Shown: piece by piece, positions 1-330 of the stretch
Numbering within the stretch: the first letter of the stretch is position 1
Layout: each line of letters begins with the position of its first letter
From: Escherichia coli
Lineage (GTDB): Bacteria; Pseudomonadota; Gammaproteobacteria; Enterobacterales; Enterobacteriaceae
Direction: 5' to 3' (one strand)
Length of the DNA stretch: 535 nucleotides
NCBI RefSeq assembly: GCF_003334385.1
Contig: NZ_QOWN01000169.1
Position numbers and translations under genes: made by a program
Notes under the pieces: model-generated
Databases searched by the model: none
What the model was told of the DNA's origin: nothing
What the model saw: the letters and a program-made list of their open reading frames with translations, nothing else

Positions 1-330
1 CATGCCAGTGCCATGCGTGATAAAGGCGGGCGCTATGTTTTCCTGATCAAAGCTGCCACCAGCGAAGTGTGGTGGCCGGAAGATGCAGATCATATTGCTT
101 TTATTCGCGGGCGTATTGGTTTTGAACTGCCTGCCTGGTTTATCCCGAAGGATGAGAAGCAGGTGCCGACAGGCGCTTTCTTCGCTGGTGCTATTGCTGT
201 TTTCGACAAGACCTGGAAGGGACCGGCAATCAGCTACATCGGGCGCGATGAACTTGAGGCATGTGGTGAGGCCTTTCTGGCGCAGGTTCGCCAGCAGGCA
301 GAAAAACTGGTCAGGGAGATGGCGGCATGA
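1..330 (+). CDS. Hypothetical protein of unknown function, possibly 5'-partial. The ORF track gives 13..330 (105 aa, MRDKGGRYVFLIKAATSEVWWPED...). Frame 1 is open from base 1 (cat gcc agt gcc precede the ATG), so the true start may be ATG 13 or lie upstream of the window.
   Basis: Uninterrupted frame-1 ORF ending at TGA 328-330. No purine-rich Shine-Dalgarno in bases 1-12 ahead of ATG 13, which favours an upstream start. Its stop overlaps the start of the downstream LexA-like gene, implying a co-transcribed, translationally coupled real gene. I recognise no family motif: there is no HEXXH, no Walker motif and no obvious HTH. Confidence 0.65.
   Translation, partial: HASAMRDKGGRYVFLIKAATSEVWWPEDADHIAFIRGRIGFELPAWFIPKDEKQVPTGAFFAGAIAVFDKTWKGPAISYIGRDELEACGEAFLAQVRQQAEKLVREMAA
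313..329 (+). promoter_or_regulatory. Ribosome-binding site (AGGGAG, 313-318) plus the ATGA stop/start overlap (327-330) that couples translation of the LexA-like gene to the upstream gene.
   Basis: AGGGAG at 313-318 with an 8-nt spacer to ATG 327-329. The TGA stop of the upstream ORF occupies 328-330, so the start and stop codons share bases 328-329 within ATGA. Confidence 0.7.

Follow-up and report, generated by a model that had tools for sequence, protein, structure and literature searches.

Bases 1-330 of the window (the whole 535-nucleotide stretch of Escherichia coli DNA analyzed here) almost certainly form the 3' half of a dam-type gene (217 aa) carried by a lambdoid prophage of E. coli/Shigella, in which the ATG at position 13, judged from near-identical relatives, would encode Met113. 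The 105-aa open reading frame (ORF) that starts at this ATG merely reflects where the window was cut; it lacks the catalytic NPPY and the rest of the N-terminal half of the domain. Annotated relatives and the TIGR01712 and PF05869 family profiles assigned the feature at 1..330 (+ strand, hereafter gene 1) to a 654-bp phage N-6-adenine-methyltransferase gene of the SfV dam type, with codons 109-217 and the TGA stop at 328-330 lying within the window.

Matches to the window, at about 95-100% identity, numbered 2297 among complete E. coli genomes, 50 among phage records and 16 among plasmids or phage-plasmids. Bases 1-330 were annotated in these matches as "phage N-6-adenine-methyltransferase", "DNA adenine methylase" or "dam", and bases 327-535 as a LexA-family or LexA DNA-binding-domain protein. 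Phages carrying gene 1 included the Shigella phages SfV and SfII, as well as cdtI, mEp460, 1720a-02, Stx2a_WGPS2 and the Stx2c phage series, and the sequence over bases 1-330 was 100% identical to that of phages Kati, vB_EcoM-689R6 and vB_EcoM-720R4. No record was found to be identical across all 535 bases; the best match over the whole window reached 99.8% and differed only by G/T at base 294 (Q/H). Compared with the phages identical over 1-330, the downstream gene (gene 2) differed at bases 384, 521 and 524. These differences fit the usual mosaic and allelic variation among lambdoid prophages. A 116-base exact probe (window 280-395) had no match in IMG/VR or in GTDB representative genomes.

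Gene order in the relatives ran from the cI-side regulators through a replication gene and a PerC/yfdN-like gene to dam, followed by a LexA-domain gene, rusA, a KilA-N gene, a DUF968 gene and antiterminator Q. This arrangement identifies the region as the early-right (nin-like) region of a lambdoid prophage. Since some records matched gene 2 only (327-535), the gene 1/gene 2 junction is a module boundary. A promoter and terminator scan yielded nothing above shuffle expectation around gene 1, and an Rfam scan returned a single chance match, to RT-19, whose 20 bits fell below the gathering score of 78.3. Two GATC sites were present within the methyltransferase coding sequence (window 45-48 and 88-91), an unremarkable number for 535 bases.

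Within the window, bases 1-15 read CAT GCC AGT GCC ATG, which translates in frame 1 as H A S A M without a stop, as the first-pass annotation had reported. No stop interrupted frame 1 from base 1 until the TGA at 328-330; counted from its ATG, the ORF (13..330) encoded 105 aa. The 12 bases preceding ATG 13 (CATGCCAGTGCC) contained no GGAG/AGGA-type run, and their best duplex with the anti-Shine-Dalgarno sequence ACCUCCUUA reached only +0.7 kcal/mol, or -0.2 kcal/mol when 20 nt of upstream context was taken from relatives, so that the reported lack of a Shine-Dalgarno-like purine run was confirmed as well. The two halves of that observation did not carry the same weight. Four stop-free codons are expected by chance with a frequency of 83% at the base composition of the window, and the open frame ahead of ATG 13 therefore carries almost no information (for the entire 109-codon open frame of gene 1, the chance was about 0.007); the absent ribosome-binding site is the informative half.

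The upstream part of the gene was read in six relatives inspected in detail, namely E. coli HB-Coli0, SL124 and O157:H7 ECP19-598 and phages 689R6, SfV and Kati, three of which were 100% identical to window 1-330. All six displayed a coding sequence of 654 bp (217 aa) starting 324 bases 5' of window base 1, which makes this base the first of codon 109 and supports the earlier claim that gene 1 begins upstream of the window. In the four relatives whose upstream frame was walked codon by codon, the frame was open and coding for 108 further codons before the window, ending in ATC ATG AAG (I M K). Going 5', no stop was met in this frame until a TGA 360 bases away. With the nearest such stop this far away, an in-frame stop directly 5' of base 1, which had been named in advance as the observation contradicting an upstream start, was absent in every relative examined. 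The upstream flank of this exact window would, we infer, be the same as in these relatives.

Extension of the frame in the 5' direction, the check that had been proposed, left only two starts giving a near-full-length product when carried out in the relatives. The GTG at -356 had a weak Shine-Dalgarno pairing (-4.1 kcal/mol), and the ATG at -323, which is the annotated start, had the strongest among in-frame candidates (-8.4 kcal/mol); ATG 13 had the weakest (-0.2 kcal/mol). Divergent homologues of the 217-aa product were 187-228 aa long. A GGGGG run lay 4 nt 5' of the ATG at -323, and this ATG formed a TAATG overlap with the stop codon of the PerC/yfdN-like gene before it. Stop/start overlaps of the TAATG type are the usual arrangement for translational coupling; from this overlap and the GGGGG run, the start of gene 1 is probably translationally coupled.

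Truncation or disruption of the gene just 5' of base 1 in a degraded prophage, leaving gene 1 as a 3' pseudogene fragment, would also account for a frame open at the window edge. The lack of an exact whole-window match is compatible with such a history, partial copies do exist in prophage remnants (e.g., K-12 yfdM), and in one 1676-bp phage record the only stretch shared with the window, bases 188-330, sat at the record's end. The K-12 yfdM truncation, however, keeps the 5' part of the gene and not the part present in the window, and the window-side half was found without the upstream half in none of 40 E. coli records (a spread sample of the 2107 matching). A 300-bp probe centred on the left edge of the window, counted when covered over at least 80%, was spanned by 1733 E. 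coli records, compared with 1669 holding at least 80% of the window. The frame within the window is moreover uninterrupted and agrees 100% with phage copies that look functional, and a pseudogene fragment is thus very improbable.

Family profiles identified the product of gene 1 as a member of the small phage-type Dam family (TIGR01712 phage_N6A_met/PF05869 Dam), with the window covering only the C-terminal half of the profile. Against a TIGR01712 cut-off of 97.05 bits, the translation of window 1-327 scored 114.8 bits, the 105-aa ORF 108.8 bits and a full-length 217-aa relative 255.5 bits. The full-length relative covered the whole profile (1-165/165), whereas the window piece covered positions 80-165/165 only and so fell short of whole-profile coverage, a shortfall that results from truncation by the window and not from non-membership. 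Results with PF05869 were similar, the window piece matching model positions 81-167/169 (E = 2e-14) and the full-length relative positions 3-167/169 (E = 1.2e-45). In a Pfam scan of the full-length relative, PF05869 was accompanied only by a non-significant MmeI_Mtase match, and PF02086 was not detected. Inclusion of the HASA residues moved the start of the TIGR01712 match to position 80, compared with 84 for the 105-aa ORF; this gain of four positions indicates that the residues before the Met belong to the domain.

Three divergent homologues were compared, from Klebsiella phage Kp4885-1 (214 aa, 64% identity), Salmonella phage 37 (228 aa, 48%) and Vibrio phage P2 (187 aa, 30%). The position of Met113 was occupied by Q, E and Q, respectively. 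All three possessed the N-terminal half, with D25, W27, T29, P30, N54-A-K-C57 and NPPY invariant. The NPPY motif (residues 86-89; motif IV, (D/N)PP(Y/F)) was invariant in six full-length homologues and lies 20 codons 5' of window base 1, where it is seen in relatives only, outside the window. The half encoded by the window comprised two conserved blocks, GGRYVFL-K-ATSE-WWP and FI-GRI-F, and a helix at the C-terminus. A tblastn search with the 217-aa protein, run on the full set of phage records, retrieved 587 records, and in a spread sample of these the alignments started from residue 1 to about residue 27, never near residue 113. As the window contains neither NPPY nor the N-terminal half of the domain, and its translation aligns to the C-terminal half of the profile only, the warning in the first-pass annotation that truncation matters for domain assignment was apt.

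A sequence search of the PDB detected no related solved structure, AlphaFold2 run on a 6-sequence alignment produced a mediocre model (pLDDT 69, pTM 0.66), and Foldseek searches of the PDB with this model returned no match at E <= 0.001. The non-significant Foldseek matches were mostly N6-adenine methyltransferases (DrdV, CAPAM, EcoDam, DpnM, METTL3/14), which would be weakly consistent with such an enzyme.

A genuine start at ATG 13, which would make gene 1 an independent 105-aa protein, is hardly credible. An ATG-to-stop ORF of that length does exist at 13..330, and the PHROGs family phrog_26052 (93 positions) consists of the C-terminal region alone, short calls having been made in some phage genomes. 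Such a start would nevertheless lack a Shine-Dalgarno sequence (-0.2 against -8.4 kcal/mol at the annotated start), the coding frame continues 5' for another 108 codons in the near-identical relatives that were walked, and the 654-bp coding sequence is annotated in 6/6 of those inspected. The residues preceding the Met align to the family profiles, the Met itself is unconserved, and the resulting fragment would be devoid of the catalytic NPPY. The codon at 13..15 (+ strand) was accordingly listed as an internal Met113 codon and not as a translation start.

The phrog_26052 family, labelled "unknown function", matched window 49-327, i.e., residues 125-217, with E = 1.6e-64. Because the match coincides exactly with the C-terminal stretch, PHROGs includes a family of C-terminal fragments alone, and its members presumably go back to certain phage genomes in which the gene was truncated or miscalled. 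Survival and expression of the C-terminal methyltransferase half on its own, at which the 93-aa phrog_26052 calls might hint, or a real overprinted gene in frame +2, is barely conceivable.

Open frames overlapping gene 1 were observed on both strands. Frame +2 (window 47-535) contained a single stop at codon 15, after which 163 open codons spanned both genes. In one relative (L001) the same frame formed a 170-aa ORF (3083..3595), and in the Klebsiella phage homologue a 106-aa ORF began at the matching offset (+406 relative to the ATG of dam). Antisense frame 2 on the - strand was also open for 163 codons (L001 2893..3474). Translations of frame +2 and of the antisense frame were Arg-rich and junk-like, for which reason both are best regarded as probable shadow ORFs of the genuine genes.

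Gene 2 begins inside the end of gene 1. Its ATG (327-329) overlaps the TGA of gene 1 (328-330) in an ATGA arrangement at 327..330 (+ strand), seen in the sequence and matched by a 4-nt overlap of coding sequences in the relatives. A Shine-Dalgarno-like AGGGAG (313..318, + strand) was read in the sequence inside the end of gene 1, 8 nt before this ATG, and the 20 nt upstream of ATG 327 paired with the anti-Shine-Dalgarno sequence at -8.2 kcal/mol. The window holds codons 1-69 of 108 (327..535, + strand), the remainder being cut by its 3' edge, as assessed from TIGR00498, PF01726 and the 327-bp coding sequence of relatives. Gene 2 scored 61.8 bits against TIGR00498 LexA over positions 1-68/203, below the cut-off of 110.95, and it was not assigned to that family. 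A 108-aa relative covered the whole of PF01726 LexA_DNA_bind (1-65/65), and no peptidase S24 match was obtained in the domain scan of this relative. Gene 2 is thus predicted to encode a protein with a LexA winged-helix DNA-binding domain only, and the labels "LexA repressor" and "SOS-response repressor and protease LexA" found in several records overstate it, the S24 autopeptidase domain being absent.

Comparison with named systems placed gene 1 among the SfV-type dam genes. Over window 1-330, the SfV dam (AAL89443.1) and its counterparts in SfII, cdtI, mEp460, Stx2a_WGPS2, the Stx2c phages, 1720a-02, Kati and vB_EcoM-689R6 showed 96.7-100% nucleotide identity. These genes have a 654-bp coding sequence and shared neighbours, with a perC/yfdN-like gene upstream and a LexA-domain gene and rusA downstream. 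They and gene 1 are allelic variants between which nothing substantial differs, except that the window holds codons 109-217 only.

The yfdM gene of E. coli K-12, located after yfdN in the CPS-53/KpLE1 prophage remnant, belongs to the same gene family and was 97.4% identical to nt 1-267. Only these 5' 267 nt (residues 1-89, ending at NPPY) are present in yfdM, which has no sequence in common with the window and continues into a tail-fibre-like gene (gp53-like domain protein; e.g., NZ_CP014272.1 2574267-2574359). The K-12 fragment and the window fragment are thus complementary parts of the same dam gene. A search of the literature on yfdM found nothing specific to this gene.

The host E. coli Dam (alpha-class, PF02086 MethyltransfD12) is presumed to share the chemistry of the gene 1 product, i.e., N6-adenine methylation with (D/N)PPY, but it belongs to a different sequence family and is much longer (278 against 217 aa).

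Several database records carried a discordant label, the Dam gene being named "phosphoadenosine phosphosulfate reductase" in PP925833 (Kati), NC_003444 (SfV), NC_021857 (SfII), NC_009514 (cdtI), NC_019716 (mEp460) and NC_049941. The same label was attached to phrog_33262 (495 positions), in which positions 283-492 correspond to the Dam domain and which was apparently built from PAPS-reductase/Dam fusion proteins. Given this match of labels and the position of the Dam domain in phrog_33262, the reductase label on stand-alone 217-aa Dam proteins is probably a propagated mis-annotation.

In the relatives' configuration, translation of gene 1 would start 324 bases 5' of the window, at the ATG overlapping the PerC/yfdN-like stop, and this start would probably be coupled within an early-right operon comprising the replication gene, perC/yfdN, dam, the lexA-like gene, rusA and the Q antiterminator. 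The product would be a small orphan phage N6-adenine DNA methyltransferase, no partner restriction gene being found nearby. From its family membership, the enzyme may be expected to methylate adenine in DNA. The usual target of phage Dam enzymes is GATC. VT2-Sakai was absent from the DNA matches to gene 1. For M.EcoVT2Dam, the Dam of a different Stx phage, GATC specificity has been stated (PMC6602927); in view of the absence of VT2-Sakai from the DNA matches, this enzyme was not equated with gene 1 as its named homologue, and its GATC result was not transferred to the gene 1 product.

Gene 1 is an already known and ordinary phage gene, and no new biology is implied. What the finding means is confined to annotation, as the 105-aa call would give a truncated protein without NPPY and half of the Dam domain. 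The correct annotation would be a 5'-partial coding sequence for bases 1-330, belonging to a phage Dam-type methyltransferase of 217 aa, and a 3'-partial one for bases 327-535.
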